From contig JAWXAT010000010.1 of the NCBI GenBank assembly GCA_034439615.1, forward strand, positions 5,001-69,000: a stretch of DNA of 64,000 nt, written 5' to 3'. The DNA comes from Oligoflexia bacterium (GTDB lineage Bacteria > Bdellovibrionota > Bdellovibrionia > JABDDW01). This document shows positions 15,162 through 62,951 of the stretch, piece after piece (within the stretch, counting starts at the first letter, position 1; every line of letters begins with the position of its first letter). Below the pieces are notes generated by a model. The model was not told where the DNA came from and made no database searches. It saw nothing but the letters and a program-made list of their open reading frames with translations. A program made the position numbers and the translations under genes.

Positions 15162-16199
15162 TTAGAGAAGTTGACCTTTGCCACGAACTTTAGCGAAAAG
15201 CTCCATGACGTCAGCTGATTTGAGAGGAAAATATGCTGCATGGGGTTTAAGTATTTCTTGCAACTCTTCTTGCCCAAAAGAGGCATTACGCTCCATTGTC
15301 CATGCGAGACGATCTGCAATGTTTAAAATTGCGACACCCAAGAATGCATCAGGATTCCGTGTTTTTAAAAGTGTACTATCGTGGTGAAAATCAATATCTG
15401 TTTCAAGATCTCTTAAAAACTTAGTTTGAAACACAAGTGCTGAACCTACTTCCATATGAGATAAATCAAAATATTCACGCTCAATTCGAGCCTCGTAGGC
15501 ATCGTTGGTCTTATGAGAATCTTTTTCATCGCGCATTCTTATAATGAGCGGGGCATACTCTCTAAACACATGTATTGATGTGGCCAATTTTCCAATGTCA
15601 TGTAATAGTCCTGCGGCGAATACAATTTTTCTATGTGAAATAAAAACGCGTTCATGAGTCGCCAATGCCCAAGCCAATGTAGCGGTGCGAATTCCGTGTT
15701 TCCATATCGATTCTAAATATGGTTCTAGAGTTTCTTTAAATCGAAGTTCACTATTTATCCAATAAGTGAAGACATCAAATATGTAGCCCGCAGCAAATGC
15801 GAGCCCAGCATATTCATTATTACATTTTTTCGCATGCTCTTCGGCTTTTAAGGCGTATTTAAGATGCTTTCCTGATTCTTCAAGACTTACATATTCTGCA
15901 TCTGCGTTCTCAGAAAACATACGCATGATTGAATGCCCTAATACCATGTTGCGCACGTTTGTTTGCCCAACAACAACAACTCCATGGCCTAAACTAGAAA
16001 CGACAGAAGCTTTCATATTTGCTGATGCTCGTGAACAAATCACTGTAGTAAAAAATTTATCTTTTTTTAAGATCTCTTCATAATCATCAGCTTTTTCACT
16101 ACCAGCGATAATTTTTTGCATAAGATCCGCAGCCACACCATCAAAATCAAACTTACTCAAAAGGCCACGGTACATTGCTCTTAATTCAAGTGCCATCAT
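15162..16199 (-). CDS. HDOD-domain signalling protein (HD-related output domain)
   Basis: GLLHDIGKL motif and the overall HDOD architecture. The gene overlaps the upstream gene by 4 nt. Confidence 0.65.
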   Translation of the reverse strand: MMALELRAMYRGLLSKFDFDGVAADLMQKIIAGSEKADDYEEILKKDKFFTTVICSRASANMKASVVSSLGHGVVVVGQTNVRNMVLGHSIMRMFSENADAEYVSLEESGKHLKYALKAEEHAKKCNNEYAGLAFAAGYIFDVFTYWINSELRFKETLEPYLESIWKHGIRTATLAWALATHERVFISHRKIVFAAGLLHDIGKLATSIHVFREYAPLIIRMRDEKDSHKTNDAYEARIEREYFDLSHMEVGSALVFQTKFLRDLETDIDFHHDSTLLKTRNPDAFLGVAILNIADRLAWTMERNASFGQEELQEILKPHAAYFPLKSADVMELFAKVRGKGQLL

Positions 16200-17026
16200 C
16201 GCTTATTACCCCTACTAATTGCCAAGAGTTGAGAACCCACAAAAAAGATAATTGCAAAAATAAGTGCTGCGATAAGTAGATAGCGAAAAATATTTCCGAA
16301 AGTTAGTTCTACTTCGATATCCTTAGCTGTCTTCTGTTGTTTTTCTGCTGAAATTTCTCGCAACGTTTTTTTATCTCGCTCATTAAGTGGAATTGAATCA
16401 TTGCCTTTATTGGCAGAAATATTATCGCCTTTATTAAACGGAACATAGCGAGTTTTTAAATCTTGCTGATTAGAGCCTCCGCCACTGCTGCCGGAGCCAC
16501 CGCCACCTCGCGAAGCAACCCCGCCAGTGCCCGTGGCTTTTTGATTTGAACCTTCACCTGATTCACCAGCACCACTATCACCAATATATTTTCCGTTGTT
16601 GCCCGCAAATTTTCCGGCTGGAATATTACTTGATTTTTCATTAGCACGTCCTGCACCACCCGCACCTGAAGAAGATTGCGCGGGACTCTTGGCATTTTTT
16701 GAACCCGTTGCACTATTTGGATTTGTAGGATTAATCGATGTGCCACCAACACCTGAGGTATTTGTGGGAAGTTTTTTTCCTGCTTCAAATGTAAGTTTAG
16801 GCTTTGGGCATTGCCCGCCAGTGTCACCGGGCAAGAGCCCTTCTTTAATTAGACAAGCAATGTAGCTATTTTCATCACCAAAAAATTTATCTGCGAAATC
16901 AGCAAAGCCCGTGTTGAAACGATAAACAGCGCCAAGCAAAACAATTATAACAATAGAGAGCAAGAAGATGTACTCGATGAGAGTTTGGCCAGATTCACTG
17001 GATTTAAACTTATGCTTTAGACACAT
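16196..17026 (-). CDS. Pilin-like N-terminus / Gly-Ser-rich low-complexity protein with a C-terminal TM helix
   Basis: SGQTLIEYIFLLSIVIIVLL resembles a class-III (prepilin) leader with E at +5. A long G/S/N-rich disordered region follows, and a second hydrophobic helix sits near the C-terminus. Confidence 0.4.
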   Translation of the reverse strand: MCLKHKFKSSESGQTLIEYIFLLSIVIIVLLGAVYRFNTGFADFADKFFGDENSYIACLIKEGLLPGDTGGQCPKPKLTFEAGKKLPTNTSGVGGTSINPTNPNSATGSKNAKSPAQSSSGAGGAGRANEKSSNIPAGKFAGNNGKYIGDSGAGESGEGSNQKATGTGGVASRGGGGSGSSGGGSNQQDLKTRYVPFNKGDNISANKGNDSIPLNERDKKTLREISAEKQQKTAKDIEVELTFGNIFRYLLIAALIFAIIFFVGSQLLAISRGNKR

Positions 17027-17203: not shown

Positions 17204-17692
17204 TCAAAAAACCGCCTTAAATTGAGAGTCATATTTTTTCTCTAATTCGTCCAATCTTTCTGAAAGTTCTTTGTTTGATAAAAGAAGTTGTCGAAGTCTT
17301 ACAAAAGTTCTCATGATTTCAATATTCACGAGAGCGGCTTTTTCACTTTTAAGTACACTTGAAAGCATAGCAACACCTTGTTCTGTAAATACTAAGGGTC
17401 TGTAACGACGACCGCCTCTTTCATCATCAGTAGCTCGAATTTTTGAGGTTCCAATTTGGAACCTCAAAAATTCCCCTTCCTTTTCAGTAACTTGGAACAT
17501 AAAATCTTCAGGAAATCTGATGATATTTCGGCGTACGGCCTTGTTCAGATTTTTGGTCTTAACCTCATAAAGTAATGCCAAATCCGAATCCAGCATGACC
17601 TTATGTCCACGAATGAAAAATATTTTCTGACTGATCTCAATATGAATTTGATTTTTTTCCACAAAACCCTCCTTTGCATCTTCGTTGTGCAA
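17204..17692 (-). CDS. ORF6N (KilA-N-related) domain protein
   Basis: [40 protein letters not shown] ... [22 protein letters not shown] matches the ORF6N domain consensus. Confidence 0.6.
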
Positions 17693-17730: not shown

Positions 17731-17758
17731 AAGAAAAATGTCCGGATAATGGACACTC
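17731..17758 (-). terminator. Rho-independent terminator ending the BMC operon
   Basis: On the minus strand the hairpin gtgtcc-attatcc-ggacat is followed by a T-run. It lies directly 3' of the last BMC gene. Confidence 0.5.
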
Positions 17759-17770
17759 GCTACTTTTAAA

Positions 17771-18040
17771 TTATTCCAACTCGATATGATCAACAATCGC
17801 CGCAATCACTGCATTGACTGGCGCTTGATCGTTACCCCACATTTGCCGACAACCATTACCTTCACGACAAATGAGCACAATATCGCCGGGGCCTGATTGC
17901 ACATGATCAAACGCTAAGTAAGCTGAGCCGTGAGGCTTGAGACCTTCATTGAGTGGTTGAACGGAAAAAATAGTTTTCCCTTCAAAGTGTGGGTTTTTTT
18001 GTGTGCTGACAACTGACTCTAAAACTTTTGCTAAAATCAT
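17771..18040 (-). CDS. BMC vertex protein (BMC-P; EutN/CcmL/PduN family)
   Basis: 89 aa. MILAKVLESVVSTQK...GDIVLI matches the EutN/CcmL fold. Overlaps the next gene by 4 nt. Confidence 0.85.
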   Translation of the reverse strand: MILAKVLESVVSTQKNPHFEGKTIFSVQPLNEGLKPHGSAYLAFDHVQSGPGDIVLICREGNGCRQMWGNDQAPVNAVIAAIVDHIELE

Positions 18041-18315
18041 AATTCAAATGACCTATCGCCCATGCGATCAACCAAACCTACAACAGCTGCATCAACTGGT
18101 GCAAATTTATTATCTAAAGCAAGGCTTGCTTCACGACTTGCAACCCACATCACTGTATCACCATGACGAGCACCAACGGGGTCAGCCGTAACGATGGTTC
18201 CACCCACAGGATTTAATTGATCATCAAGGGGTTGCATTAATAAAAGTTTAACACCCAAGAGACTTGGATCTTTTTGTGAGCAAACTACTGTGCCTAAAAT
18301 TTTTCCTAAATGCAT
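18037..18315 (-). CDS. BMC vertex protein (BMC-P), second paralog
   Basis: 92 aa. MHLGKILGTVVCSQKDPSL...GDTVMWVA matches the EutN/CcmL family. Confidence 0.85.
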   Translation of the reverse strand: MHLGKILGTVVCSQKDPSLLGVKLLLMQPLDDQLNPVGGTIVTADPVGARHGDTVMWVASREASLALDNKFAPVDAAVVGLVDRMGDRSFEL

Positions 18316-18364
18316 AAGTCACACCTTAAACTTATAATTGAACTTGGACTCAACGACATATGTT

Positions 18365-18934
18365 TTATGAGACTGGTTCAATATTAAAATACTTTAAAAA
18401 ATCCTCGTGAGGACTCGCAATAATCTCTGTACGAATGAGTGTACCTTTATCAGCTATCGACGATATTCCATCTGCCACACTGGCTTGTACATTTTCTAAT
18501 GTGCCAGTAACAAAGTAATATGCTTTTCCACCAATTCCTCTAGCCATTCTAAAATCAATCAAATGAACATCGGCTGCTTTACAAGCACGATCTGCACTGA
18601 TTAACCCCGAGCTCACCGCTGCGGTTTCAACAATACCAATGCTTTCTAAAACAGGAAATCGATTTTGAGAATACATTCCCGGTAAAACTTCAGGATGCAA
18701 ATATGGAATATACACTTCATCAATAATTTGATTTGCAGCTAACTCCAGTAACTCTTTTCTGCTTTCTTCAACACTTGCTTCATCACCATTGATTAAAATA
18801 AAAAACTTACCTGGGCTCACGGCAGCTGCTTCAAGAATTCGTACAGGTGCTTTTTTAACAAGTTTGTCTAAAAGGAAATATCCCCGCGCAATGCTTGAGA
18901 TTTCAAAAGACGCAATGGCTGGGCCAAATATCAT
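18365..18934 (-). CDS. Tandem BMC-domain shell protein (BMC-T, PduT-like)
   Basis: 189 aa containing two consecutive BMC-like domains. The second (SIGIVETAAVSSGLISADRACKAADVHL...) is canonical. Confidence 0.7.
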   Translation of the reverse strand: MIFGPAIASFEISSIARGYFLLDKLVKKAPVRILEAAAVSPGKFFILINGDEASVEESRKELLELAANQIIDEVYIPYLHPEVLPGMYSQNRFPVLESIGIVETAAVSSGLISADRACKAADVHLIDFRMARGIGGKAYYFVTGTLENVQASVADGISSIADKGTLIRTEIIASPHEDFLKYFNIEPVS

Positions 18935-20331
18935 ACAATCCTAAAATGATCTTTAAGTGTGCAACGACGTACGCGACTAAAATTACGAGCCGTTGTCATG
19001 CCTTCTCCTGTGGGTGAAGCAATTGTAAATGAAGTATAACCTTCACCACCCATTCCAAGGCCAGCATAACTAGGAGCATTTTTAACAAAGATACTTGTAT
19101 TGATCACTTTTGCCATTTTGTGAAGATGATCGATGTGACGAGAATGCATAACAGCCGTGTGACCGTAGCCATGCTCAACACGTTTTGCCATATCAATTGC
19201 CGCGTGTACATTGGGTGCACGAACAAAACCAACAACGGGCATTAATAGTTCTAACTGTACAAAAGGATGATTCTCAGAAACATCAGCAAAGATAAGCCTT
19301 AGTTCATCACCAGCTGGAACTCCAATTTCTTTTAAAATAACACCTGCGTTTTTGCCTACGAATTTTTTTGCCGGGTATTTTCCATCAACAACTACTTTTT
19401 CAAGTCTACGCGTTTGCTCAGCCGATAATTGATAAGCGCCAAAAGTTTTTAAAAGTTTAGCTAACTCATCTGCAACAGCGTCAACCACAATAATTTCTTT
19501 TTCAACGATACAGACAATATTATTATCAAGACTTGCACCAGCGATAATATCCCGCGCAGCTTTTGCAAGATCAGCTGTTTCATCGACAACTACTGGTGGG
19601 TTACCAGGGCCTGCTCCAATAACTTTTTTGCCAGAACTCATAGCCTCTTTCACAACACCGGGACCACCCGTGACAACAAGTAATCTAATACCGGGGTGGC
19701 GCATAAGTTCTTTTGCAGAATCAATTGTTGGTTCACGTAATACTGTGATGCAATTATCTGGCCCACCGTTTTGCACAATGACTTGATTCATCACATCGAC
19801 AACTTTTGCACAGACTTTTTTAGCTGAAGGATGTGGGTTAAATACGACAGTGTTACCAGCTGAAATGATACTGATACCATTATTGATAATTGTTTCCGTA
19901 GAATTTGTTGTGGGTGTGATGCTTCCTAAAACTCCAAATGGGGCATATTCCATAAGTGCTAGGCCATCATCGCCTGTGAAAACTTCAGGATTTAAAATTT
20001 CAGGGCCAGGAGTTTTATCTATTACTAAAAGATTTTTTTTAACTTTATCTTCAACGCGGCCAAGACCAGTTTCGCTCACAGCCTCAGCTGCCATCCATTG
20101 TAAACATTCACGAAGGCGACACCGTAATTTATCAATTATTCGTTTACGATGATCAAGTCTCAGTGCTGACCAAACAGGAAAAGCTGTTTGTGCTGCTTCA
20201 ACTGCGCGATTGACGTCGCTGAAAATGCCTCGTGAACCAGCAACTGGAGATTCTTTTTGTTCAACCTCACCCATGCGTGAAAGTACACGCTTCACAAGAA
20301 CGTTAATTTGCTCTTGATCAAGAGTTGACAT
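18931..20331 (-). CDS. CoA-acylating aldehyde dehydrogenase (EutE/PduP-like) with an N-terminal encapsulation-peptide-like helix
   Basis: ALDH-superfamily core with catalytic Cys in NNIVCIVEKE. The amphipathic N-terminal helix STLDQEQINVLVKRVLSRM precedes a linker. The start is taken at the Met at 20331; the longer ORF runs to 20364. Confidence 0.8.
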   Translation of the reverse strand: MSTLDQEQINVLVKRVLSRMGEVEQKESPVAGSRGIFSDVNRAVEAAQTAFPVWSALRLDHRKRIIDKLRCRLRECLQWMAAEAVSETGLGRVEDKVKKNLLVIDKTPGPEILNPEVFTGDDGLALMEYAPFGVLGSITPTTNSTETIINNGISIISAGNTVVFNPHPSAKKVCAKVVDVMNQVIVQNGGPDNCITVLREPTIDSAKELMRHPGIRLLVVTGGPGVVKEAMSSGKKVIGAGPGNPPVVVDETADLAKAARDIIAGASLDNNIVCIVEKEIIVVDAVADELAKLLKTFGAYQLSAEQTRRLEKVVVDGKYPAKKFVGKNAGVILKEIGVPAGDELRLIFADVSENHPFVQLELLMPVVGFVRAPNVHAAIDMAKRVEHGYGHTAVMHSRHIDHLHKMAKVINTSIFVKNAPSYAGLGMGGEGYTSFTIASPTGEGMTTARNFSRVRRCTLKDHFRIV

Positions 20332-20587
20332 CAATGGTGTCCACGATGGCCATGATGACGGCATCTACTGGTTTATTTTGCGTAGTTTGAGTTTGTCGAG
20401 CTGAGCTACCTGTGGCGAACAAAACTGTTTCACCAACACCAGCTCCTACAGAATCAATGGCAACAATCACTCCGCCAGCGTTTTTACCGCTAGCATCGAT
20501 TTGTTGAACCACGAGCATTGTCATACCCTGAAGCTTTTCGTCTTTTCGGGTGGCGACACATGTCCCCACCACTTTCCCTAACAGCAT
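20318..20587 (-). CDS. BMC vertex protein (BMC-P), third paralog
   Basis: 89 aa. MLLGKVVGTCVATRKDEKL...GETVLFATG matches the EutN/CcmL family. Confidence 0.85.
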   Translation of the reverse strand: MLLGKVVGTCVATRKDEKLQGMTMLVVQQIDASGKNAGGVIVAIDSVGAGVGETVLFATGSSARQTQTTQNKPVDAVIMAIVDTIDVNS

Positions 20588-20649
20588 TTGTTCCTTTTGG
20601 TCCTTGGTGAACTACTTAATAAAGTACACATCGGCTGTGCGTTTTAACC

Positions 20650-20958
20650 TTACTTATTGTTAACGCGTTTTGCGCCACGACCAAGTGGAAGAGCCATATC
20701 GATGTTGCCATGAGGACGAGGAATAACGTGTACACTTACAAGTTCGCCTACTTTTTCAGCAGCGCGTGAACCCGCTTCTGTTGCAGCTTTCACTGCAGCA
20801 ACGTCGCCACGAACGATAGCAGTTACATAACCACCACCAATTTTTTCGTAACCAACGAGTTCTACTTTTGCAGCTTTAACCATGGCGTCGGAAGCTTCAA
20901 CCATTCCGATAAAACCTTTGGTTTCGATCATGCCTAATGCGTCTGATGAATTATCCAT
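20650..20958 (-). CDS. BMC hexamer shell protein (BMC-H; PduA/EutM-like)
   Basis: [53 protein letters not shown] is the canonical Pfam00936 sequence. Confidence 0.9.
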
Positions 20959-21007
20959 TTGGATCTCCTGATGTGTGCGCCATTATTAGCGCGACACTAG
21001 TTATGAG

Positions 21008-21625
21008 TTATACACCCGTAATATTTTCTAAAGCTTTAATAGCGGCTTCACGAGCCGAATCGATTTCACTTTCAGTACCCGCCATCCACAAACGCCCGAA
21101 TGCGCCAAAAGGTTTCACTTCAACTAAAGAAACGTTGGCCGCTTTTTCTGCTTCGTTTGCAGCAAAAGTAATGTAGCCCGCTGGTTCAGTTTCTAAAATA
21201 AAAAGTGATTGGCCAGGTAACAGCATATTTCCCCAGCGATTTGAGTTAACTAAAATCGCATGGTCAGGTTCTACGTGTCTGATGACTTGGTTTGAAACAA
21301 CTTTTGGTTTTTGTCTTTGTTCTTCGCTTAATTCTAATGAATCAAGAATTGCTTTACCCGCTTGGCGCACTTCACCTTGATCTGGATGATGAACTTCAAG
21401 CAAACCAAACGCACGCTCAACAATTTGCATTGCGGGTCTGACTTTTGTCGCCTTCAAAGCGATATCCATAACTGTGTTGATCGCAATACCTGGCGCGATC
21501 TCTACATATAAGGCAGCATCCCCTGGAATTGGCAAAAAACCGCGAGCCGTTGTGCCGACGAATGTGGCAAGTTGCGGTTGAAGTGAGTCGATAAAACTAA
21601 AAGCTTTTAAAGTTACTTTGGACAA
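21008..21625 (-). CDS. BMC-domain protein, probably tandem (second BMC-T-like shell component); first gene of the BMC operon
   Basis: The 205-aa protein shows two BMC-like segments (…[23 protein letters not shown]… and …[28 protein letters not shown]…). PduL RHIH motifs are absent. A strong RBS aagaggtgg precedes the ATG. Confidence 0.5.
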
Positions 21626-21858
21626 AGAATTACCACCTCTTAAATTGAATATTCCACATGTGGTTGCAAGTCGTTAGGCGCAAACTAGCACGGTGCAGAA
21701 AATTGAGTCAACGACCAAGATATATAGATGCGAATCTTGTCTAACGTTTTGACGCTATGTGTATATTAATTTGGCGATCTAGCCTAAAGTTCCGTCGATA
21801 TCAGCCGATCAGTGAGGTGCATATGCTTAATGCTAATTCTTTTAAGGGGGCCTTTTAT

Positions 21859-23736: not shown

Positions 23737-24822
23737 TTATTCTTTCCAGCTTAAATAGTAGTTGGCGTTTTCAACAGCCAGCGCTTCTTTTGTTGGGTTC
23801 AGTGGTCTGTAGGTATCGACCATCACGGCGTACTCGTTTGTCATTACTTTTCCTTTAGCACCTTCGGCGGCAGTTGGGTGTGGGCCATGATGAATGCCGT
23901 ACGGGTGAAACGTTACCATTCCAGCACCCATGTCTTTACGTGAGAAGAAATCACCGTCATGATAAAATATCACTTCATCACAATCAATATTGCGATGATA
24001 AAACGGAACTCGATTTGCACCAGGCTCTGTTTCAAAAGGCCTTGGCACAAAACTACAAATGACAAATCCACCGCCGACAAAAGTTGAATGCACAGAAGGC
24101 GCTAAATGATATCTATGACTTGTCACCGGTCTAAAATCTTTAATGTTCACTTTCACAACACACAAATCACCCTTCCAACCGACGACATCAAGTGGGTTAA
24201 AACCATAAGTGACTATTGTGAATTCATTTTGTCTTTTTATTTTTACTTCAAAACTTCCTTTTTCATCTTTAGGCTCAGGATTCGGAGTTGCAATAACAGC
24301 TGGGTCAAAGAGCGCATGCTGACCTAATAAACCTTTATCGGGCAAATTAACTTCTGTTCGAGATTCAACGACAAGATATTTTTGCGCACCTGAAGACGTA
24401 ACAAAACGATGTGTTGTTCCTTTTGGAACAACTAAATAATCGCCACGCTCGTAATTAAGCGGGCCAAAATCAGTTTCAATTACGCCTTGACCTTCATGAA
24501 TAAAATAAACAACGTCGCCATCTGCACAACGATAAAAGTAAGGCATTGTTCCAGTGGGTTGCATGAACCCAACTTTCACATCGTTATTTTCTAATCCAAA
24601 AGTTGCCTGCCAGGGGTCTTTTCCGGCGGCCATTTTTAAATAGTTAAAAGCCTGGGGTTTGCATTTACCCTCAATCTTTTGCCAATTTGTGGGAGCGTTT
24701 GTGTGATAGAGATGTGTAACTCGCCCGAAAAAACCTTTTCTCCCATGTTCATCCTCATAAGTGCCTTTGGGAATATCCACATGAGCTTGTGGCGTTGTCT
24801 TACCTTTATTTTGATGAAACAT
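23737..24822 (-). CDS. hmgA: Homogentisate 1,2-dioxygenase-like cupin protein
   Basis: 361-aa cupin with a His-rich C-terminal region (FHPYGIHHGPHP), consistent with short-form HGD-family dioxygenases. The assignment is by resemblance only. Confidence 0.5.
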   Translation of the reverse strand: MFHQNKGKTTPQAHVDIPKGTYEDEHGRKGFFGRVTHLYHTNAPTNWQKIEGKCKPQAFNYLKMAAGKDPWQATFGLENNDVKVGFMQPTGTMPYFYRCADGDVVYFIHEGQGVIETDFGPLNYERGDYLVVPKGTTHRFVTSSGAQKYLVVESRTEVNLPDKGLLGQHALFDPAVIATPNPEPKDEKGSFEVKIKRQNEFTIVTYGFNPLDVVGWKGDLCVVKVNIKDFRPVTSHRYHLAPSVHSTFVGGGFVICSFVPRPFETEPGANRVPFYHRNIDCDEVIFYHDGDFFSRKDMGAGMVTFHPYGIHHGPHPTAAEGAKGKVMTNEYAVMVDTYRPLNPTKEALAVENANYYLSWKE

Positions 24823-24940
24823 GCATTACCTCCGCTTGCTAAATACAAATTAACACTTCAAATATGCCTTACTTGCAATCACCTGGCAACGTGCCTATAC
24901 TCAGTGTCACCAACATTAATCAGCGTAAGGATTTTCAGCA

Positions 24941-26770
24941 ATGTTAAGCGCACTTAAAAGATTCATGGTCGGCGTACCACTTTCAACAGACCGCGTCAGC
25001 CACGAACGACTCTCTAAACGAAAAGCCTTAGCTGTATTTTCCTCTGATGCCCTTTCATCTGTTGCCTACGCCTCTGAAGCTATAATTCTTGAACTCGCCA
25101 AAGCTGCAATTATTGTCCACGCACTTCCCTGGACATGGCCAATTTCACTAAGCATTGTTGGCTTGTTGTGGATTTTAGTCTTGAGCTATCGCCAAACCAT
25201 TTCTGCTTATCCAAATGGCGGTGGCGCCTACACAGTGAGTAAAGAAAACTTAGGAGAAAATGTTGGCCTCGTTGCGGGAGCATCTCTACTTATAGATTAT
25301 ATTTTAACAGTCGCTGTTTCTATTGCAGCTGGTGTGGCCGCCGTTACGTCAGCATTTCCGACGATGCTGCCGCATAGTGTGGCGATTGCAAATGTTGCGA
25401 TTTTAATTTTGATGTTTATGAATTTGCGAGGCATACGCGAATCAGGAAGCGTTTTTGCTATTCCGACTTATGTTTTTATTATTGGAATGTTCATTTTATT
25501 TGCTTGGTTAGGAATTCAATCCATTTTTATTAATCCACCAGAAGTTACAACTCCACTCATGCCTCAAACAACTGATGGTGTTGGTATTTTTATGATCTTA
25601 ATTGCCTTTTCAAGTGGTTGCGCAGCACTCACGGGAGTTGAAGCCATCAGTAATGGCGTAACAGCATTTAAACAACCCGAACAAAAAAATGCAAAAACAA
25701 CTCTTGTGTGGATGGCAATACTGCTCGCCATTTTATTCGCGGGGGTTAGTTACTTCACGCACGTTTACAATATTATGCCTAAAGATCATGAAACTGTTAT
25801 TTCGCAATTGGCGCGCATCACGGGCAGCAATCTTTTTTATTACTTCATTCAAGCGTCAACTGCTTTGATTTTATTTTTAGCTGCCAATACAAGTTTCAAC
25901 GGATTTCCCTTAGTCACTTCACTCTTAGCTGAAGATCGATATTTGCCAAGACAACTCGCATCGCGCGGAGATCGCCTGGTGTTTAGTAACGGCATTATGG
26001 GTCTTGGTTTAATTTCGATGTTTCTCATCTGGATTTTTAAATCAGACGTTCATCTTTTGATTCCACTCTATGCTATTGGGGTTTTCTTAAGTTTTACTTT
26101 GTCACAAGCGGGCATGGTGAAACATTGGTATGTGCACAAAGGCAATAACTGGCAACGCAATATCGTGATCAACGCTGTTGGTTGCTTGACTACTTTTGTG
26201 GTTCTTATGGTTATTGTTATTACAAAATTTCCTCAAGGTGGTTGGCTCGTTTGTCTGATGACACCACTTTTGGTTTTTCAATTTCGCCGCATCAAACATC
26301 ACTACACACTTGTCGGAAGTCAACTGCGCCTTGACGGGCCACCACCAGAAACCCCGCCCATTTCTACACATCACGTGGTGATTCCTGTTTCAGGAATTCA
26401 TCGTGGCGTTTTAGAAGCACTGAATTACGCTCGAAGCATTAGTAAAAACATCACAGCTTGTTACATCGACATTACTCCTCGAATCACAGAGCGCATTATT
26501 AATGAATGGGGAATATATGGAATGGGTGTTGAGCTTAAAATATTGCCTTCACCTTACCGCTCAGTGACGCGGCCATTATTTGATTTTATTGCTGAAGAAA
26601 TGAAGCGAAATCCCGAAGGTCGAATTACCGTAATTATTCCTGAGTTTGTTACAGCAAAATGGTGGCAAAACATTCTGCATAATCAAACCGCAATTATCAT
26701 AAAAGCCGCCCTCGCCTTCAAACGCCGCGTCGTCGTAACCACCGTCCGCTATCACCTCACCCACGGCTAA
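24941..26770 (+). CDS. APC-superfamily permease with cytoplasmic C-terminal domain (KimA-like K+/H+ symporter candidate)
   Basis: SSDALSSVAYASEA N-terminal motif, ~12 TM helices and a ~150-aa soluble C-terminal domain. Length is 609 aa, similar to KimA. Confidence 0.65.
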   Translation: MLSALKRFMVGVPLSTDRVSHERLSKRKALAVFSSDALSSVAYASEAIILELAKAAIIVHALPWTWPISLSIVGLLWILVLSYRQTISAYPNGGGAYTVSKENLGENVGLVAGASLLIDYILTVAVSIAAGVAAVTSAFPTMLPHSVAIANVAILILMFMNLRGIRESGSVFAIPTYVFIIGMFILFAWLGIQSIFINPPEVTTPLMPQTTDGVGIFMILIAFSSGCAALTGVEAISNGVTAFKQPEQKNAKTTLVWMAILLAILFAGVSYFTHVYNIMPKDHETVISQLARITGSNLFYYFIQASTALILFLAANTSFNGFPLVTSLLAEDRYLPRQLASRGDRLVFSNGIMGLGLISMFLIWIFKSDVHLLIPLYAIGVFLSFTLSQAGMVKHWYVHKGNNWQRNIVINAVGCLTTFVVLMVIVITKFPQGGWLVCLMTPLLVFQFRRIKHHYTLVGSQLRLDGPPPETPPISTHHVVIPVSGIHRGVLEALNYARSISKNITACYIDITPRITERIINEWGIYGMGVELKILPSPYRSVTRPLFDFIAEEMKRNPEGRITVIIPEFVTAKWWQNILHNQTAIIIKAALAFKRRVVVTTVRYHLTHG

Positions 26771-27054: not shown

Positions 27055-27228
27055 ATGAAAAAATTTATGGCAATTTTAAAAGATGAAAACGGCCAGGGGA
27101 TGCTTGAGTACATTCTACTTGTTGGCGTACTTGCGACCATCATTCTTGTTTTTAAAGGCCAAATTTCCGGCTTAATTACAAAGTGGACAGGTAATGTCGG
27201 CGATGCTGGCGACAATGTTTTTAAATAA
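27055..27228 (+). CDS. flp: Flp-family pilin (57 aa; below the ORF-track threshold)
   Basis: MKKFMAILKDENGQGMLEYILLVGVLATIILVF shows the Flp G/XXXXEY processing motif followed by a hydrophobic helix. Confidence 0.75.
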   Translation: MKKFMAILKDENGQGMLEYILLVGVLATIILVFKGQISGLITKWTGNVGDAGDNVFK

Positions 27229-27277
27229 TTAACGGGCGAGACATAGAAGTCTCAATTTATCGGAGAAGGGCTAAAAA

Positions 27278-27499
27278 GTGAATGCGGCAGGGCAAGCACT
27301 TGTAGAATTCGTTCTACTCACGGCTATCTTTTTAACTTTCATTGGCGTCATCGCCAAGAAGGTCCCGCTTACTTTTAGCAGTGCCACACCCTATCTCGGA
27401 GGTAAAATCCAACAACGCCTTGAAACAGGCGGGGGTTTTGCCAAAGGCGCATGGGCTGTTCCTGTGAAATCAAAGGGAGGAGTGGATAATGATAAATAA
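27278..27499 (+). CDS. Second Flp/pilin-like protein
   Basis: AGQALVEFVLLTAIFLTFIGV prepilin-like N-terminus. 73 aa. Confidence 0.5.
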   Translation: MNAAGQALVEFVLLTAIFLTFIGVIAKKVPLTFSSATPYLGGKIQQRLETGGGFAKGAWAVPVKSKGGVDNDK

Positions 27500-27983
27500 C
27501 TACACTCTTCTTTGCGCATTTGGAATTTTAACCGCTGCGACAATTACCGACTTTCGCACTCATCGCATACCAAATAAACTCATGCTCATCAGCGCTGTTA
27601 TTTCAGTAATCGTAGTTGTAATTACAGCAGGCGGAGCTGGGTTAACAAATGCAGGACTTGGGTTTTTAACAGGCTTTGGATTTTATTTTCCTTTGGCTTG
27701 GTTTGGCGTGATTGGTGGCGGTGATCTTAAACTTTTAGCAGTAGTTGGCATCACCACTGGTGCGCTTAACATTTTGATGATCGGACTCTTCTCACTCATC
27801 TGGGGTGCGATCTTTGGCGTTTTGCAATCTGCATTTCGCGGAGAAATTAAGGCTGTTTCACAAAATCTTTTGCATTTATTTTTATTTAAAAAAATCGAAA
27901 ATAAACAACTTCATCGTTTTCCATTTGCAGCATCAATGTTGATGGCAGCACTTACTCAATGGTCATGGAGCAAAATGCCATGA
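27489..27983 (+). CDS. cpaA: Prepilin peptidase CpaA/TadV (A24 family)
   Basis: ITDFRTHRIPN, a second Asp motif (GGGDLKL) and the multi-TM architecture. Confidence 0.8.
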   Translation: MINNYTLLCAFGILTAATITDFRTHRIPNKLMLISAVISVIVVVITAGGAGLTNAGLGFLTGFGFYFPLAWFGVIGGGDLKLLAVVGITTGALNILMIGLFSLIWGAIFGVLQSAFRGEIKAVSQNLLHLFLFKKIENKQLHRFPFAASMLMAALTQWSWSKMP

Positions 27984-28240
27984 AAAATTTAAAACGATTG
28001 AAATCAAAATCAGGTCAAGCTCTTGTAGAGTCAATTCTTCTGATGGCCGTAGTCATCGTATGTTGGACTGGCGCTGCAAAAATTTTACGTGAAAAAGGTT
28101 TGTTTCAAAATGTGTTCGGAAAATCTTGGGGCAAACTTTCAACCGTAATAGAATTTGGAATACCCGTCACCGCTCGCGGGACTGCTGCGCCTAATCACCC
28201 AACGGCTTTTCAACGTCACTCAACGCGGGTGTCAAAATGA
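27980..28240 (+). CDS. TadE-like pseudopilin
   Basis: SGQALVESILLMAVVIV N-terminus. Confidence 0.45.
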   Translation: MKNLKRLKSKSGQALVESILLMAVVIVCWTGAAKILREKGLFQNVFGKSWGKLSTVIEFGIPVTARGTAAPNHPTAFQRHSTRVSK

Positions 28241-28845
28241 AAAATATATTAAATCAATCAGGGCAACTCACCGTAGACTTCATGTTTTCACTGATTCTTA
28301 TTATCAGCATCTCTACTCTTTTAGGCGCACTGACATTTGCATTAACATTAACCGAAGTCGTACAGTATGTGAGTTTTGCCGGAAGCCGCGCTTATTTTGC
28401 AGCCGATCTCACCGAGACAGATCAAAAAAATGTTGGAAATAATAAAATGGAAGTTCTCACAAAGAGCTTACCCTTCTTAGCCTCAGCGCAAAAAGCTGGT
28501 TGGATCGTTCTTCCACCCCAAAGCCGCGATGTCGGAGATTTCACCGCGTATCGAGAACAAATAAATGCTCCATCTACCCGTAATCAATTTGTAGGCGCAC
28601 AAATCAAATTTATAATTCCGATATTAAATTTAAACTTACCTTTTTTGGGTGAAGCTATTGAACCGCCAAACGGAGGTTCTTTTAAAGCTACGGTATCAAG
28701 TTTTTTACTTCGAGAGCCCTCTTTTCAAGAATGCTCCAAATTCATGTCAACAAGTTATAAGGCACTTCTTGAAGTGGTCTCGCCAACATGCCCCGGGGGT
28801 TGTGATGCCGGAAGATTTATACCAATTACAGATAATGGATGTTGA
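28237..28845 (+). CDS. TadE/TadG-like pilus assembly protein
   Basis: SGQLTVDFMFSLILIISI N-terminal pilin-like segment followed by a soluble domain. Confidence 0.45.
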   Translation: MKNILNQSGQLTVDFMFSLILIISISTLLGALTFALTLTEVVQYVSFAGSRAYFAADLTETDQKNVGNNKMEVLTKSLPFLASAQKAGWIVLPPQSRDVGDFTAYREQINAPSTRNQFVGAQIKFIIPILNLNLPFLGEAIEPPNGGSFKATVSSFLLREPSFQECSKFMSTSYKALLEVVSPTCPGGCDAGRFIPITDNGC

Positions 28846-29324
28846 TGATGAAAATGTGTAAGAAAAATAAAAAGGATGAAAAAGGTTTTGCACTTGTAGA
28901 AACTTTAGCTTTTTTATTTGTGTTCATCACACTCACTGCTTACGTCATTGATTTTTTCACCGTCATTCATACAGGTATTTTAAATTCTATTGCTGCACGC
29001 ACCTATCTTTTTGAAACACTTCAACATCGCAGCAATCCAAACACTCTTCGACAAGAACTTACACTAGAAGAGGCCAAGCAAAAAGGGGTTGATTTCACAG
29101 CCGACGGACAACGATTTCACGCCATAAACGACGAAGATCAATTAGAAAATGATAATGCTCAAATCAGTGCCGTTGGTAGAATTTTAACTCAGGTAAAAGA
29201 AGATAATCAAGTTAAGCCAAGTATCACGCAGTCTGATCGATTGGATGATCGCACTTCAAAAGCATCAACGATCGTTATTAAATCTGGTTACGGAATTTGC
29301 TTAGATGCTCGGTGCGGGGGATAA
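28839..29324 (+). CDS. TadE-like protein
   Basis: EKGFALVETLAFLFVFITL N-terminus. Confidence 0.45.
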   Translation: MLMMKMCKKNKKDEKGFALVETLAFLFVFITLTAYVIDFFTVIHTGILNSIAARTYLFETLQHRSNPNTLRQELTLEEAKQKGVDFTADGQRFHAINDEDQLENDNAQISAVGRILTQVKEDNQVKPSITQSDRLDDRTSKASTIVIKSGYGICLDARCGG

Positions 29325-29326
29325 GT

Positions 29327-30247
29327 ATGAATCAAAACAGTAGAACATTTTGGGTATCAATGGGATGCGCACTCGTGGCGATGTTTCTTATTTACAGTTA
29401 CACTCAAGAGCAAAAAGCCCAATACGATAAACGCTACGGCACAACAAAAACAGTTCTCATTGCATCAAAAGATATAGTCGAAATGATCACTCTTGATGAA
29501 ACAATGTTAACTCAAGAAGAGCGTCCAGTTGATTTTATTCAGCCAGGTGCAATTGAAAACCCCGACGACGCTGTTGGTTTAGTAGCAGCTGCCCCCATTA
29601 AAAAAGGTGAGCAAATTTTACTGACAAAACTTTTAGCCCCCGGGCCAAACACCGGTCTATCACTACAAGTGGCTCCTGATAAACGCGCAGTTACAATTCC
29701 CGTTGACGAAGTCAGAGGCGTTGGAAAACTCATTCGCCCTGGCGATCGCGTAGATATACTTACAAGCATAAGTTATGGAGATGGTAAAAACGAGCGCCGC
29801 GAAGTTAAAACATTGCTCCAAGATATTTTGATATTAGCAACAGGTCTTAATGTCACAAATAATATACCTCGCGTATTACAACTTGATTCATTTAACGGAA
29901 AACCCGTTTATAAAAATCTTAACGGCGACACCGGTTATAATACCGTCACCGTAGAAGTAGATCCCCGTCAGGCGCAAAATCTAATTTACATTTTAAGCGT
30001 TGCGCCCGGAGCAATTTTTCTAAGCTTAAGAAATGGCAATGATAAAATTCTCACACGTTTAAGAACAGCCACAATTGATTCTGTCTTAGAAATGGACAGT
30101 GATCGCGCTTTACAAGCCAAACTTCAACAAGCCCAACAACAAGCAGCTACTGCCACTGCTGCAGCACAAGCTGCTAGCTCTGCCCAACGCGCTCCTGCTA
30201 AAGCGGGCGGCTTTGTCGAAGTTCGTGGCAGTGAAGTTAAGTATTAG
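29327..30247 (+). CDS. cpaB: Flp pilus assembly protein CpaB (SAF domain)
   Basis: N-terminal TM helix, a SAF-like domain, and its position between the pilins and the secretin. Confidence 0.7.
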   Translation: MNQNSRTFWVSMGCALVAMFLIYSYTQEQKAQYDKRYGTTKTVLIASKDIVEMITLDETMLTQEERPVDFIQPGAIENPDDAVGLVAAAPIKKGEQILLTKLLAPGPNTGLSLQVAPDKRAVTIPVDEVRGVGKLIRPGDRVDILTSISYGDGKNERREVKTLLQDILILATGLNVTNNIPRVLQLDSFNGKPVYKNLNGDTGYNTVTVEVDPRQAQNLIYILSVAPGAIFLSLRNGNDKILTRLRTATIDSVLEMDSDRALQAKLQQAQQQAATATAAAQAASSAQRAPAKAGGFVEVRGSEVKY

Positions 30248-30255
30248 GGAGGATC

Positions 30256-31728
30256 ATGAAGATTAAGGTGAAAATGTTGATATTTTTATTTCTAGGATTT
30301 CTTATCCTGGTACCAAATCAAAGTTTTGCTGGAAAGCAATACATCGGCCTTACCATTGGTTTGACTGAGGAAAAGAAAGTTCCAAACATGCCTGATACTT
30401 TAAGCGAAGATTCATCGTACAACCGAAGTGTTGTAAGAATCGCAATTGCTAAAGAATTAAAAATCATTCGCTTTGAGCCCCTACAAGCCGGAACCACAAA
30501 TTTTAACTTACGCGATTCAAAAGGCCGACTCATTGCCGAATACGTCATCACTGTACGAAAAAACAATCTTAACCGCGTTGCTTCAGAAATTAAAAGCCTA
30601 CTAGGTGACGTTGATGGCATTCAAATTAAAATAGTTAATAACAAGGTCATTATCGACGGAGAAATATTATTACCACGAGATATGAACCGCATTTATAGTG
30701 TTGTTACTCAATTTAGCGATGTTGCCTCAAGCATTGTTACAATGAGTCCACTTGCTCAGAAAAAAATCGCTGAACTTATTGAAAAGGATATCGGTAACCC
30801 TGAGATTCATGTTCGCGCTGTTAATGAAAAATTTATTCTTGAAGGTGTAGCTGCAAGTGAATCCGAAAAGCAAAAAGCTGAGATCATAGCAAAAACATAT
30901 GTTCCCGACATTATTATTGAAGCTGCAGAGAGTGCGGGGCTTCTTAAAAAACGTAAAATTGATTCTGTAATTAATTTATTAAGTGTTAAGCCCGGTGCTG
31001 AACCCCAACCCGGTAAAATCATCAAGGTTGTTGTTCACTTTGTTGAACTTCAAAAAGATTACACGCGGGGTTTTAGATTTCAATGGACCCCTACTTTAAA
31101 AGAAGATTCAGGAGTGCAATTCTCCACCGGTGGCAACTCACCGGGAGGAGTTTTAAGCACGATCACAGGTACAATAAACGATTTATTGCCAAAACTTAAT
31201 TTCGCAAAAGCACACGGGCATGCGCGCGTTCTTCAAAGCTCAAGCATTATCGTTCAAGATGGAAATCCCGGAATGATTAAATCAATTACGCGTATTCCAT
31301 ACACCGTTCAAAATCAGTACGGTCAACTCACAACAAATTTTGAAGAAGCTGGCATTGACATGACAATTACTCCCAGCATTGTGAGTAGCAAATCAGACAG
31401 CGTGAATATGACTATCGTATTTAGTTTAAAAAGTCTTATCGGTCAGACCGAAAAAGGCCCGCTTGTTAGTAGTAAAAGCATTTCTACTCGTCTTGCCGTA
31501 CGAAGTGCACAAAGTGCAGCAATTGGTGGACTCGTAAGCAATGACTCAAGCATGGCTTATAATCGATTACCAAAAGGTGCTAGTGAGAATCCTTTGATTT
31601 CACTGTATGCCAGTAAACAGTTTCAGCGTAACCAAAGTCAATTTGTGGTGTTTGTCACACCCGTAATTATGTATTCAGCCTCTGAAGGCAGTGATGACAT
31701 CAAAAAGAAGTTTCGCTTAAAAGAATAA
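30256..31728 (+). CDS. cpaC: Flp pilus secretin CpaC/RcpA
   Basis: Signal peptide and a C-terminal secretin domain (…GGLVSNDSSMAYNRLP…ENPLISLYAS…QFVVFVTPVIM). Confidence 0.8.
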   Translation: MKIKVKMLIFLFLGFLILVPNQSFAGKQYIGLTIGLTEEKKVPNMPDTLSEDSSYNRSVVRIAIAKELKIIRFEPLQAGTTNFNLRDSKGRLIAEYVITVRKNNLNRVASEIKSLLGDVDGIQIKIVNNKVIIDGEILLPRDMNRIYSVVTQFSDVASSIVTMSPLAQKKIAELIEKDIGNPEIHVRAVNEKFILEGVAASESEKQKAEIIAKTYVPDIIIEAAESAGLLKKRKIDSVINLLSVKPGAEPQPGKIIKVVVHFVELQKDYTRGFRFQWTPTLKEDSGVQFSTGGNSPGGVLSTITGTINDLLPKLNFAKAHGHARVLQSSSIIVQDGNPGMIKSITRIPYTVQNQYGQLTTNFEEAGIDMTITPSIVSSKSDSVNMTIVFSLKSLIGQTEKGPLVSSKSISTRLAVRSAQSAAIGGLVSNDSSMAYNRLPKGASENPLISLYASKQFQRNQSQFVVFVTPVIMYSASEGSDDIKKKFRLKE

Positions 31729-31810
31729 GCTAAAACTCGACTCGACATAGATCTAGTTACCTTGAAGATTCTCACGTTTTTTCCGATAAGAAGTTGGGAG
31801 AAAAGTCACT

Positions 31811-34878: not shown

Positions 34879-34898
34879 CAACAATATGGGAATTTTCA

Positions 34899-47599: not shown

Positions 47600-47632
47600 T
47601 ACTACGGCCCTGGGTATGGCAGCCCAAGAAAA

Positions 47633-47667
47633 GGGCTTGGATTCGATCCAAGCCCTTTATTTTTCCC
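47633..47667 (+). terminator. Rho-independent terminator
   Basis: Hairpin aagggcttgga-ttcga-tccaagccctt followed by a T-run. Confidence 0.55.
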
Positions 47668-47690
47668 CATTAATATGTGTCTAATGTTGT

Positions 47691-62917: not shown

Positions 62918-62951
62918 TACTTGCAAATTAAAACAAGCCGTAGTAACTCTC

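Follow-up and report, generated by a model that had tools for sequence, protein, structure and literature searches.

A 64 kb stretch of DNA from a Bdellovibrionota bacterium, analyzed here as a whole and called the window, carries a compact cassette of bacterial microcompartment (BMC) genes with a single enzyme gene among them. This raises the question of whether the locus encodes an intact organelle operon, to which known type it belongs, and what such an organelle may do. From the ORF listing and Pfam, we located seven co-directional genes on the minus strand (17771-21625), in the order BMC-Tdp, BMC-H, BMC-P, aldehyde dehydrogenase (AldDH), BMC-Ts, BMC-P, and BMC-P, and all seven products passed the Pfam thresholds. 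The operon is genuine and intact, and its seven genes specify a bacterial organelle with a protein shell and one enzyme, AldDH. The span given in the initial annotation, 17731-21700, brackets it correctly. The genes had also been called mostly overlapping; overlaps do exist, but since they occur at three of the six junctions (+49, +62, −14, −4, +49, and −4 nt, from the first gene to the last), this was slightly overstated.

An ORF6N gene lies downstream of the operon (17204-17692, Pfam E = 7.5e-32). The two upstream neighbors have no Pfam match, and their N-termini, read from the sequence by eye, are signal-peptide-like. A consensus scan placed a terminator-like hairpin at 17736-17758 on the minus strand, 13 nt past the last BMC-P stop codon, where the operon probably ends; the count of terminator-like sites in the region was not above the shuffled expectation, so the hairpin is suggestive by position only. 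Upstream of the first gene, the ORF map leaves a divergent intergenic region of 131 bp (21626-21756), presumed from its position only to be the promoter region, in which no significant sigma-70 match and no Rfam element were found. Comparing the seven proteins by phmmer with all ORFs of at least 60 aa in the 64 kb, we found no shell gene outside the cassette. The earlier view of a self-contained module is supported.

The shell proteins begin with a 205-aa BMC-Tdp (21008-21625, minus strand). Its gene has a TTG start preceded by AAGAGGTGG, its second domain matches PF00936 (E = 1.8e-7), and the precomputed Pfam of an identical protein adds PF27545 (CsoS1D_N). The best solved match, over the full length, is HO-5816 of Haliangium ochraceum (5v74/6n07, E = 1e-83), followed by CcmP and CsoS1D. 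The product is a tandem BMC protein resembling CsoS1D and CcmP, and proteins of this kind form stacked trimers with a gated pore. The sole hexamer-forming shell protein is a BMC-H of 102 aa (20650-20958, minus strand; PF00936, E = 3.8e-30) with the motifs KAAK and PRPH. Among solved structures it comes closest to H. ochraceum HO-5815 (5djb/5v74, E = 1.2e-45; approximately 80% of residues identical in the printed alignment), if 6ner, in which this protein was fused in tandem by design, is set aside.

The second tandem protein, BMC-Ts (18365-18934, minus strand), contains two PF00936 stretches (E = 5.2e-30) and represents the single-layer tandem-BMC trimer. Its best solved matches are the PduT-like 3nwg and 3pac, HO-T1 (5dih) being weaker at E = 4.6e-23. 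At the position of the [4Fe-4S] pore cysteine of PduT it has a serine (vSpgk, against vCpgk in 3nwg and iCpgk in 3pac). Three genes encode pentameric vertex proteins. The lone member of this BMC-P triplet, number 1 (20318-20587, minus strand; PF03319, E = 5.4e-30), has as its best solved match the BMC-P of H. ochraceum (5v74, E = 3.9e-29). Number 2, first of the adjacent pair (18037-18315, minus strand; PF03319, E = 5.9e-26), diverges from number 1 and matches 5v74 at E = 3.8e-15. Number 3 (17771-18040, minus strand; PF03319, E = 1.1e-22), which also has PDB matches, overlaps number 2 by 4 nt. The full shell set proposed earlier (three BMC-P, one BMC-H, and two BMC-T) passes the PF00936/PF03319 HMM check throughout, and the kit is complete, with three different BMC-P, one BMC-H, a single-layer BMC-T, and a double-layer BMC-T like CsoS1D.

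The single enzyme is a CoA-acylating AldDH of the PduP/EutE class (18931-20331, minus strand; PF00171, E = 2.4e-35), as the initial annotation had it. The open frame reaches 20364; public gene calls start at M12 (20331), giving 466 aa (P0001, 100% identical). The best solved match is Rhodopseudomonas palustris PduP (5jfl, E = 2.9e-130, residues 28-461), where the cysteine of NNLPCVAEKE aligns with that of NNIVCIVEKE in the window protein. We take this cysteine to be catalytic. In our alignment of 16 homologues it is invariant (C274). Homology to PduP begins only at residue 28, and the preceding part contains an amphipathic helix, LDQEQINVLVKRVLSRMGE (20266-20322, minus strand), and then a short linker to the catalytic domain. 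Across the alignment, the helix pattern QIxxLVxxVxxRL is conserved and the linker varies by several tens of residues. The helix is a putative encapsulation peptide (EP), which may serve to target the enzyme.

In its shell genes and its enzyme, the locus resembles that of H. ochraceum, one of the "MIC" loci of Axen et al. 2014 (PMC4207490) and the source of the name HO type in Sutter et al. 2021 (PMC8217296). There, the HO main locus contains shell proteins including a BMC-P triplet and, as its only enzyme, an AldDH with N-terminal EP; in a second HO type the main locus encodes almost every component, and the aldolase is missing from about half of these loci (Sutter et al. 2021, PMC8217296). 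H. ochraceum itself (type I) shares with the window one BMC-H, three BMC-P, AldDH with N-terminal EP as the only main-locus enzyme, and no PduS, and BMC-H, BMC-Tdp, and BMC-P number 1 each have their nearest solved relative among its proteins. Its tags are Hoch_5816 for Tdp, 5815 for H, and 5812 for Ts, with 5814 presumably the BMC-P and 5813 the AldDH. The order Tdp-H-P-AldDH-Ts(-P-P) is common to the Myxococcota HO type I loci (L080 from Kofleriaceae, L017 and L028 from Myxococcales) and the HO type II-like loci L016, L023 (Rickettsiales), L029, and L045, the latter type holding almost everything in one locus. When the AldDH catalytic domains are placed in a neighbor-joining tree, the sequences from Bdellovibrionota group together with those of the Myxococcota HO loci.

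The differences are also clear. H. ochraceum, a myxobacterium, has its BMC-P pair in a satellite with the aldolase and three BMC-T in total, whereas the window, from a Bdellovibrionota host with 40% G+C, has the pair in the main locus and only one visible BMC-Tdp. Its BMC-Ts is nearer to PduT-like proteins than to HO-T1, which counts against the HO reading. A main-locus aldolase (pfam00596) is missing here, as in about half of the catalogued HO type II loci (11 loci in Supplementary Data 2 of Sutter et al. 2021, PMC8217296). However, in the same-order HO type II-like loci found here in other phyla, a class II aldolase follows 0-4 kb downstream; neither the window nor any of the 14 other Bdellovibrionota-type loci, with up to 10 kb of flank, has one.

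We compared three further types. SPU3, a sugar-phosphate utilization BMC (Sutter et al. 2021, PMC8217296), has one BMC-H, a BMC-P triplet, BMC-Tdp, and a BMC-Ts with neither PduS nor pore cysteine, and L018, L068, L073, and L076 (Holophagaceae, Acidimicrobiia, Anaerolineales, and Phycisphaerae) show the identical seven-gene order; but its defining pfam02502 (RpiB) and pfam01791 (DeoC), directly upstream in these four loci, are absent from the window. The SPU5 locus L078 belongs to the same phylum (Bdellovibrionales bacterium GWA2_49_15), but it differs in gene order and additionally encodes PduS and two aldolases, one of the DeoC family and one of class II; its AldDH is only 52% identical to ours and branches outside the HO group, away from the other Bdellovibrionota sequences, and the catalogue gives SPU5 BMC-Ts a pore cysteine (Sutter et al. 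2021, PMC8217296). MIC7 (Latescibacteria/Eisenbacteria) likewise has an AldDH with N-terminal EP as sole non-shell gene and a BMC-P triplet, but two kinds of BMC-H and a satellite BMC-Tdp, whereas the window has one BMC-H and BMC-Tdp as first gene. Judged by gene order, shell set, and AldDH rather than by the catalogue's own HMM-based classification, the locus is probably of the HO type in a compact layout, with all three BMC-P genes in the main locus. The initial annotation had described a metabolosome with incomplete core. A shell set with AldDH alone is indeed what we found, but this pattern is already named and has a model system, and so is not an unclassified oddity.

Pfam scans of the 62 ORFs of at least 120 aa in the window, and searches with local profile seeds (RpiB, DeoC, class II aldolase, PduS, PTAC, Zn-ADH, and EutA/B/C/G/H/L), found no aldolase, DeoC, RpiB, PduL/Pta, alcohol dehydrogenase, EutBC, or PduS among them. 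The reported lack of signature enzyme, PTAC, and alcohol dehydrogenase was thereby borne out for the 64 kb; acetate kinase and an adjacent DNA-binding regulator are likewise not present, and no overlooked complete core adjoins the operon in the window. At the 14 other Bdellovibrionota-type loci, aldolase, DeoC, RpiB, PduS, PTAC, alcohol dehydrogenase, and Eut proteins are absent within flanks of up to 10 kb. Among the 120 best homologues each of Bdellovibrionales DeoC and class II aldolase, no satellite candidate has a longest contig that matches, by length, one with an AldDH of this clade. Of the same-order loci from other phyla that had sufficient flank, most carry RpiB plus DeoC or a class II aldolase by the cassette.

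The identical cassette recurs at each of the 14 other Bdellovibrionota-type loci that we examined (named loci: L001, L005, L006, L007, L031, L089-L095, and the P0024 contig), 13 being complete and one (L031) ended by the contig end. These fall into two stable synteny groups, and the gene order is unchanged across AldDH identities of 60 to 86%. None of the seven genes is broken, their dN/dS values against L001, L092, and L091 lie at 0.02-0.16, and purifying selection acts on the cassette. Identity to the 120 best AldDH homologues is 57-100%, and those homologues named to a taxon are all Bdellovibrionota, Bdellovibrionales, Bacteriovoracia, or Deltaproteobacteria. Bdellovibrionales entries also stand in the shell-protein trees of Sutter et al. 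2021 (PMC8217296). The earlier view of the lineage as an unusual place for such an operon is therefore not supported.

Taken together, we favor, with some reserve, an operon that encodes an HO-type metabolosome, with a main locus of shell proteins plus AldDH. The N-terminal helix would target AldDH into the lumen, where a short-chain aldehyde, CoA, and NAD+ would be converted to acyl-CoA and NADH, the aldehyde being kept in by the shell. The same-order loci with RpiB plus DeoC or a class II aldolase support a C2-C3 aldehyde as the likely substrate. The aldehyde-making enzyme would be encoded beyond the 64 kb; roughly weighted, a DeoC-type or class II aldolase has about an even chance, an ethanolamine ammonia-lyase "EUT module" a small one, and something else takes the rest. 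Since PTAC, alcohol dehydrogenase, PduS, and an Fe-S pore are lacking, NAD+/NADH and CoA/acyl-CoA probably pass between the lumen and the cytosol, and the gated pore of BMC-Tdp is the most plausible route.

That no aldehyde-generating enzyme occurs in the window or in the relatives' flanks counts against the HO-metabolosome reading. It suits another, which we consider unlikely: a minimal aldehyde sink with no dedicated signature enzyme, in which AldDH, sole cargo in the Bdellovibrionota clade, oxidizes aldehydes diffusing in from cytosolic reactions on prey-derived material, with cofactors passing the gated BMC-Tdp pore. The shared absence of the core enzymes from the window and from the flanks of up to 10 kb at the 14 other loci, their presence by most same-order cassettes of other phyla, the lack of a satellite candidate, and the purifying selection all fit such a sink. 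Against it, we know of no experimentally demonstrated metabolosome without a signature enzyme, and the view covers 64 kb here, at most 10 kb per side in relatives, and the top 120 hits in the contig-length comparison of satellite candidates. Moreover, HO type I genomes typically encode the aldolase far from the main locus, in a satellite (24 of 30), and the catalogue lists a Bdellovibrionales MAG with a main locus marked as incomplete and an EutL-type shell gene in a satellite (Sutter et al. 2021, PMC8217296).

The missing PTAC and alcohol dehydrogenase also remove the usual marks of a catabolic direction. PduP-class enzymes are reversible, and AldDH might act reductively, or the organelle might have some other, non-catabolic function; for example, acyl-CoA could be turned into an aldehyde confined for a later reaction. 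We regard this as quite improbable, because no locus examined links an aldehyde-consuming enzyme (reductase, transaminase, or decarbonylase) to the cassette, and the enzymes linked to related loci of the same order are aldolases, which produce aldehydes. Least probable is a decaying remnant, a shell operon from which the signature enzymes were lost and which can no longer build a functional organelle. Relative to SPU3-like and HO type II-like loci in other phyla, enzymes are indeed missing, but the seven intact ORFs, the low dN/dS of each, and the constant order in both synteny contexts argue against decay.

For a predatory Bdellovibrionota host, the aldehyde of the favored HO-type metabolosome could plausibly derive from prey deoxyribose, sugars, or ethanolamine. 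The locus is not a new kind; it adds a Bdellovibrionota cassette to an already catalogued type.

An ORF map combined with Pfam searches revealed seven genes at 17771-21625, all on the minus strand, where the initial annotation had placed seven co-directional genes (17731-21700). In gene order, they encode BMC-Tdp (21008-21625, 205 aa; BMC domain, E = 1.8e-7, with a precomputed PF27545 CsoS1D_N match on an identical protein), BMC-H (20650-20958; BMC domain, E = 3.8e-30), BMC-P1 (20318-20587; EutN_CcmL, E = 5.4e-30), an aldehyde dehydrogenase (AldDH, open frame 18931-20364; Aldedh PF00171, E = 2.4e-35), BMC-Ts (18365-18934, 189 aa; two BMC domains, E = 5.2e-30), BMC-P2 (18037-18315; EutN_CcmL, E = 5.9e-26), and BMC-P3 (17771-18040; EutN_CcmL, E = 1.1e-22). 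Public gene calls start AldDH at M12 (20331), giving a protein of 466 aa (P0001, 100% identical). The successive junctions measure +49, +62, −14, −4, +49, and −4 nt. The HMM check proposed in that annotation, with PF00936, PF03319, and PF00171, thus returned a match for each of the seven proteins. Three PF00936 and three PF03319 proteins, all above the Pfam gathering thresholds, are encoded inside 3.9 kb, the clustering that marks a BMC locus of any type.

A consensus scan placed a terminator-like hairpin 13 nt past the last stop codon of the operon. The promoter and terminator scans gave site counts not above shuffled expectation, so the hairpin is suggestive by its position alone. An Rfam search found no riboswitch or other RNA regulator near the operon. 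Directly after the operon lies the ORF6N-domain gene already named as its neighbor, which Pfam confirmed at 17204-17692. The close relatives L001 and L092 lack this gene at the matching position and have a pilin-like gene after the cassette; the ORF6N gene therefore looks like a local insertion. L003, a public contig of the same strain, ends just beyond it.

We then compared the shell proteins with solved structures. BMC-H is about 80% identical to the Haliangium ochraceum BMC-H, HO-5815, in the printed alignment. The best solved match of the 205 aa tandem protein is the H. ochraceum BMC-Tdp, HO-5816, aligned end to end (E = 1e-83), followed by CcmP and CsoS1D; therefore, we regard it as a double-stacking BMC-Tdp of the CsoS1D/CcmP-like clades, as expected for the H. 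ochraceum (HO) type. It shares with HO-5816 the Glu-Arg pair in the motif VERAFG, the pore gate in the CsoS1D and CcmP structures. BMC-P1 is closest to the HO pentamer of the shell structure 5v74 (E = 3.9e-29). BMC-P2 and BMC-P3 diverge more from that pentamer, and the three BMC-P proteins are mutually divergent. The genes for BMC-P2 and BMC-P3 adjoin with a 4 nt overlap and BMC-P1 stands apart, the arrangement of the HO BMC-P triplet; judged from the alignments, the divergence of BMC-P2 and BMC-P3 is as expected for such a triplet. We identify the 189 aa tandem protein as a BMC-Ts of the single-layer kind, nearest to the PduT-like 3nwg and 3pac and more distant from HO-T1 (5dih). At the position of the PduT [4Fe-4S] cysteine it carries Ser (vSpgk, against vCpgk in 3nwg and iCpgk in 3pac). 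The pore cysteine and the PduS homologue that characterize SPU5 loci are both missing from the window.

The AldDH is PduP-like, with 5jfl as the best solved match (E = 2.9e-130), and the cysteines of its motif NNIVCIVEKE and of the PduP motif NNLPCVAEKE fall in the same alignment column. A CoA-acylating pfam00171 AldDH of the BMC-associated class is therefore present in the locus, as in metabolosomes. Homology with PduP begins only at residue 28. Ahead of it, an amphipathic QIxxLVxxVxxRL pattern is kept in an alignment of 16 homologues, and the linkers after this N-terminal helix differ from one another by several tens of residues. A conserved amphipathic N-terminus followed by a variable linker is the signature of an encapsulation peptide (EP), so that, as a sequence pattern, the AldDH carries the N-terminal EP of HO AldDhs. 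In a distance-based NJ tree of 82 catalytic domains, which bears neither support values nor labelled catalogue sequences, the Bdellovibrionota clade fell within a group of Myxococcota AldDH-only and aldolase-linked type II-like loci. This placement in a support-free tree agrees with an HO AldDh, a group described as lying near SPU5/SPU7. The AldDH of L078, the SPU5 locus of Bdellovibrionales bacterium GWA2_49_15, was placed away from the Bdellovibrionota clade and is 52% identical to that of the window.

The initial annotation held that this shell set accompanies a single enzyme, the CoA-acylating AldDH, and that signature enzyme, PduL, alcohol dehydrogenase, and acetate kinase are all absent. 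Both statements stand within the 64 kb window. Pfam searches of all 62 ORFs of at least 120 aa, together with local profile searches, found no aldolase (including pfam00596), DeoC, RpiB, PduL/Pta, alcohol dehydrogenase, acetate kinase, EutBC, or PduS. The Pfam search of the same ORFs also returned no ethanolamine ammonia-lyase, diol dehydratase, or glycyl-radical enzyme, the enzymes that would indicate an EUT, PDU, or GRM locus, and Escherichia coli EutA/B/C/L seeds had no match in the window. When the seven cassette proteins were used as phmmer queries against ORFs of at least 60 aa, no further shell gene was found. The window therefore holds no complete core of signature enzyme, PduL/Pta, and alcohol dehydrogenase, and its main locus consists of shell proteins and AldDH only. 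Neither failing shell-protein matches nor an overlooked adjoining core, either of which had been named as fatal to the original reading, was encountered.

That reading, a metabolosome with an incomplete core, is correct under the definition of Axen et al. 2014 (PMC4207490), who defined the term and listed the H. ochraceum locus among its members. Sutter et al. 2021 (PMC8217296) renamed that locus HO and assigned to the type 41 loci, mostly from Deltaproteobacteria, then including Bdellovibrionales. In their catalogue, the HO type I main locus comprises shell proteins and AldDh only; a pfam00596 aldolase occurs in the main or a satellite locus of many HO members, not all, and is lacking from the main locus in about half of the HO type II loci. 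A satellite "EUT module" is found in some HO, SPU3, and SPU6 genomes. The function of HO was called enigmatic, and a role in nucleic-acid or sugar-phosphate metabolism like that of SPU was suggested. Bdellovibrionales proteins already appear in the catalogue trees, where GWA2_49_15 is labelled SPU5 and RIFOXYD1_FULL_53_11 has an "incomplete" main locus with a satellite EutL (all PMC8217296). Our literature search found no paper that treats Bdellovibrionota microcompartments as its topic. Taking these features into account, we assign the locus to the catalogued HO type as a further member with a compact layout, a typing made by sequence comparison.

Does the cassette occur regularly in this lineage? 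The host had been considered unusual for a microcompartment, and this did not hold up: Bdellovibrionota are regular carriers. Identity to the window AldDH is 57-100% among its best 120 homologues, and the named taxa among them are all Bdellovibrionota, Bdellovibrionales, Bacteriovoracia, or Deltaproteobacteria. The order Tdp-H-P-AldDH-Ts-P-P is identical in the homologous loci L001, L005, L006, L007, L089, L090, and L091-L095 and in the P0024 contig, and in L031 it is kept as far as the contig end that cuts it. Two synteny groups were recognized. In the first (window, L001, L005, L006, and the P0024 contig), 5/5 loci have a Tad-locus Flp pilin gene at a distance of 0.2-8.7 kb, and after the cassette in several of them a pilin-like protein, DUF2203, and NAD synthase follow, with an HDOD protein too in the window and L001. 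In the second (L007, L089, and L090), SBP_bac_5 precedes the cassette, and SLT and PRPP synthase/Pth/YchF come after it, with a HAMP-like protein in between in L089 and L090. No candidate signature enzyme was found in any of these Bdellovibrionota-type loci within flanks of up to 10 kb.

In G+C content the cassette (0.421) differs little from the window (0.399), which together with the stable chromosomal synteny gives no sign of a recent island, and we rejected horizontal acquisition of that kind. Against L001, L092, and L091, dN/dS is 0.02-0.16 for every cassette gene, with dS saturated. Stable order and synteny, G+C, and low dN/dS together show that the clade inherits the cassette as part of its chromosome and that selection acts on it; it is not an oddity, nor is it a relic. 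A decaying remnant is contradicted by this conservation and purifying selection, and we consider it extremely unlikely.

Several neighboring genes were also inspected. We rejected the idea that the cassette extends to an eighth conserved gene following BMC-P3, as the small ORFs at this place in L005, L007, L089, L090, and L031 are of several unrelated kinds (membrane protein, thioredoxin-like 2Fe-2S protein, HAMP-like protein) and have no counterpart in the window. In L005 (12653-14020), a 109 aa membrane protein directly after the last BMC-P is followed by phosphofructokinase; in L007 (12850-13188), the corresponding gene encodes a non-homologous 112 aa thioredoxin-like [2Fe-2S] ferredoxin (weak Pfam match). 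At 23737-26770 of the window, a weakly HgmA-like cupin dioxygenase (361 aa) adjoins an AA_permease_2 transporter (609 aa). L001 has both genes next to its cassette, and L005 has the dioxygenase. Kept only in the closest relatives and set apart from the operon by an opposite-strand gene, the pair reflects synteny and was rejected as a pathway belonging to the system.

On the other side of the ORF6N gene, a 276 aa protein (16196-17026, minus strand) has a prepilin-type N-terminus (GQTLIEY, then a hydrophobic helix) and a long stretch rich in Gly/Ser/Asn, and is followed by an HDOD/HD-domain protein (15162-16199, minus strand). L001 keeps both of them downstream of its cassette, and L006 keeps the pilin-like protein. 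The Tad/Flp pilus locus (27200-36530; also in L001, L005, and L006) encodes a prepilin peptidase (27489-27983), RcpC (29297-30247), a secretin (30256-31728), a fused ParA-like and CpaF-type ATPase (31811-34006), TadB/C (34003-34878), and then an RHS/DUF6531 protein (34899-36530). Elsewhere in the window are two adjacent PilZ-domain proteins (47000-48389), a group II intron (53751-55651, minus strand) in which Rfam RF02005 (122.7 bits) and RF00029 flank an RT/maturase ORF (53860-55173; PF00078, PF08388), and, near the window end, a deoxyhypusine-synthase-like gene (62889-63926; PF01916, E = 8.4e-43).

A scan of species-representative genomes, in which Bdellovibrionota are under-sampled and which gives no prevalence estimate, yielded at least 80 loci; genes of the other-phylum loci were called homology-first. 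Among the loci listed, the same seven-gene order occurs in Holophagaceae, Rickettsiales, Pseudomonadota, Acidimicrobiia, Anaerolineales, Phycisphaerae, Nitrospinota, and Neomarinimicrobiota, usually joined to further genes. RpiB and DeoC lie directly upstream in L012, L015, L018, L068, and L073, SPU3-like loci of the same order, whereas the window lacks both and so cannot be typed as SPU3. A class II aldolase is encoded 0-4 kb downstream of the cassette in L016, L023, L029, L030, and L045. PduS is inserted between AldDH and BMC-Ts in L024, L025, L037, and L062, the last three also having a class II aldolase. Myxococcota loci such as L080, L028, and L017 consist of Tdp-H-P-AldDH-Ts only. L076 contains a fused 492 aa DeoC-family ORF in which only the DeoC seed scored. 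In the SPU5 locus L078 (6950-7903), a DeoC-family protein has about 100 residues ahead of its Pfam DeoC match. Over 100 proteins about 300 aa long (P0121-P0240, among the matches listed; 64-70% identity, 96% of length) keep this region, which may therefore be a structured domain and not just an EP with a linker.

The operon thus encodes a complete shell kit and one PduP-like AldDH with an EP pattern, and no PTAC, alcohol dehydrogenase, PduS, or Fe-S pore. We favor, as probable, the whole HO-type picture. In the shell, BMC-H would form the facets, BMC-T would add pseudohexamers, and BMC-P would close the vertices, following the H. ochraceum shell structures 5v74 and 6mzx, both found among the solved matches. 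The N-terminal helix would recruit AldDH, which would oxidize a C2-C3 aldehyde to acyl-CoA. The aldehyde would come from an enzyme encoded elsewhere, with DeoC, class II aldolase, and ethanolamine ammonia-lyase as candidates. The gated BMC-Tdp pore would let NAD and CoA pass, a route for large cofactors that Sutter et al. 2021 (PMC8217296) raised as a possibility. Regarding the aldehyde source, E. coli EutA/B/C/G/H/L seeds had no jackhmmer match in any retrieved locus. With DeoC and class II aldolase of GWA2_49_15 as queries, none of the best 120 matches was placed with AldDH-clade contigs, a weak negative because it is restricted to those matches.

The consistent absence of a linked enzyme throughout the Bdellovibrionota clade would also suit an organelle that is an aldehyde sink with AldDH only and no signature enzyme at all. 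Against this, the 64 kb window and flanks of up to 10 kb cover only a small part of each genome, and we regard such a sink as rather unlikely. A bolder form of the idea, which we hold to be unlikely, is that the Bdellovibrionota cassette makes a self-sufficient minimal organelle, with AldDH as sole cargo, a signature enzyme never encapsulated, cofactors entering through the BMC-Tdp pore, and aldehydes from prey digestion as its substrate. If so, a functional link would lie behind the conserved position of the cassette in one sub-clade, 0.2-8.7 kb from the Tad/Kil-like predation pilus locus. A reductive or otherwise non-catabolic role of the organelle appears very unlikely.

The locus brings no new architecture. 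Tdp-H-P-AldDH-Ts-P-P is a widely distributed module, combined elsewhere with RpiB and DeoC, class II aldolase, or PduS. The new point is modest: in a whole Bdellovibrionota clade, the bare cassette is retained by purifying selection and has no aldehyde-producing enzyme linked to it within flanks of up to 10 kb. For the structure and engineering of microcompartments, the HO shell serves as the main model, and its native function is still called enigmatic (Sutter et al. 2021). If studied in a cultured member, the Bdellovibrionota cassette would offer a stripped-down system for the function of an AldDH-only metabolosome and for the exchange of NAD and CoA.
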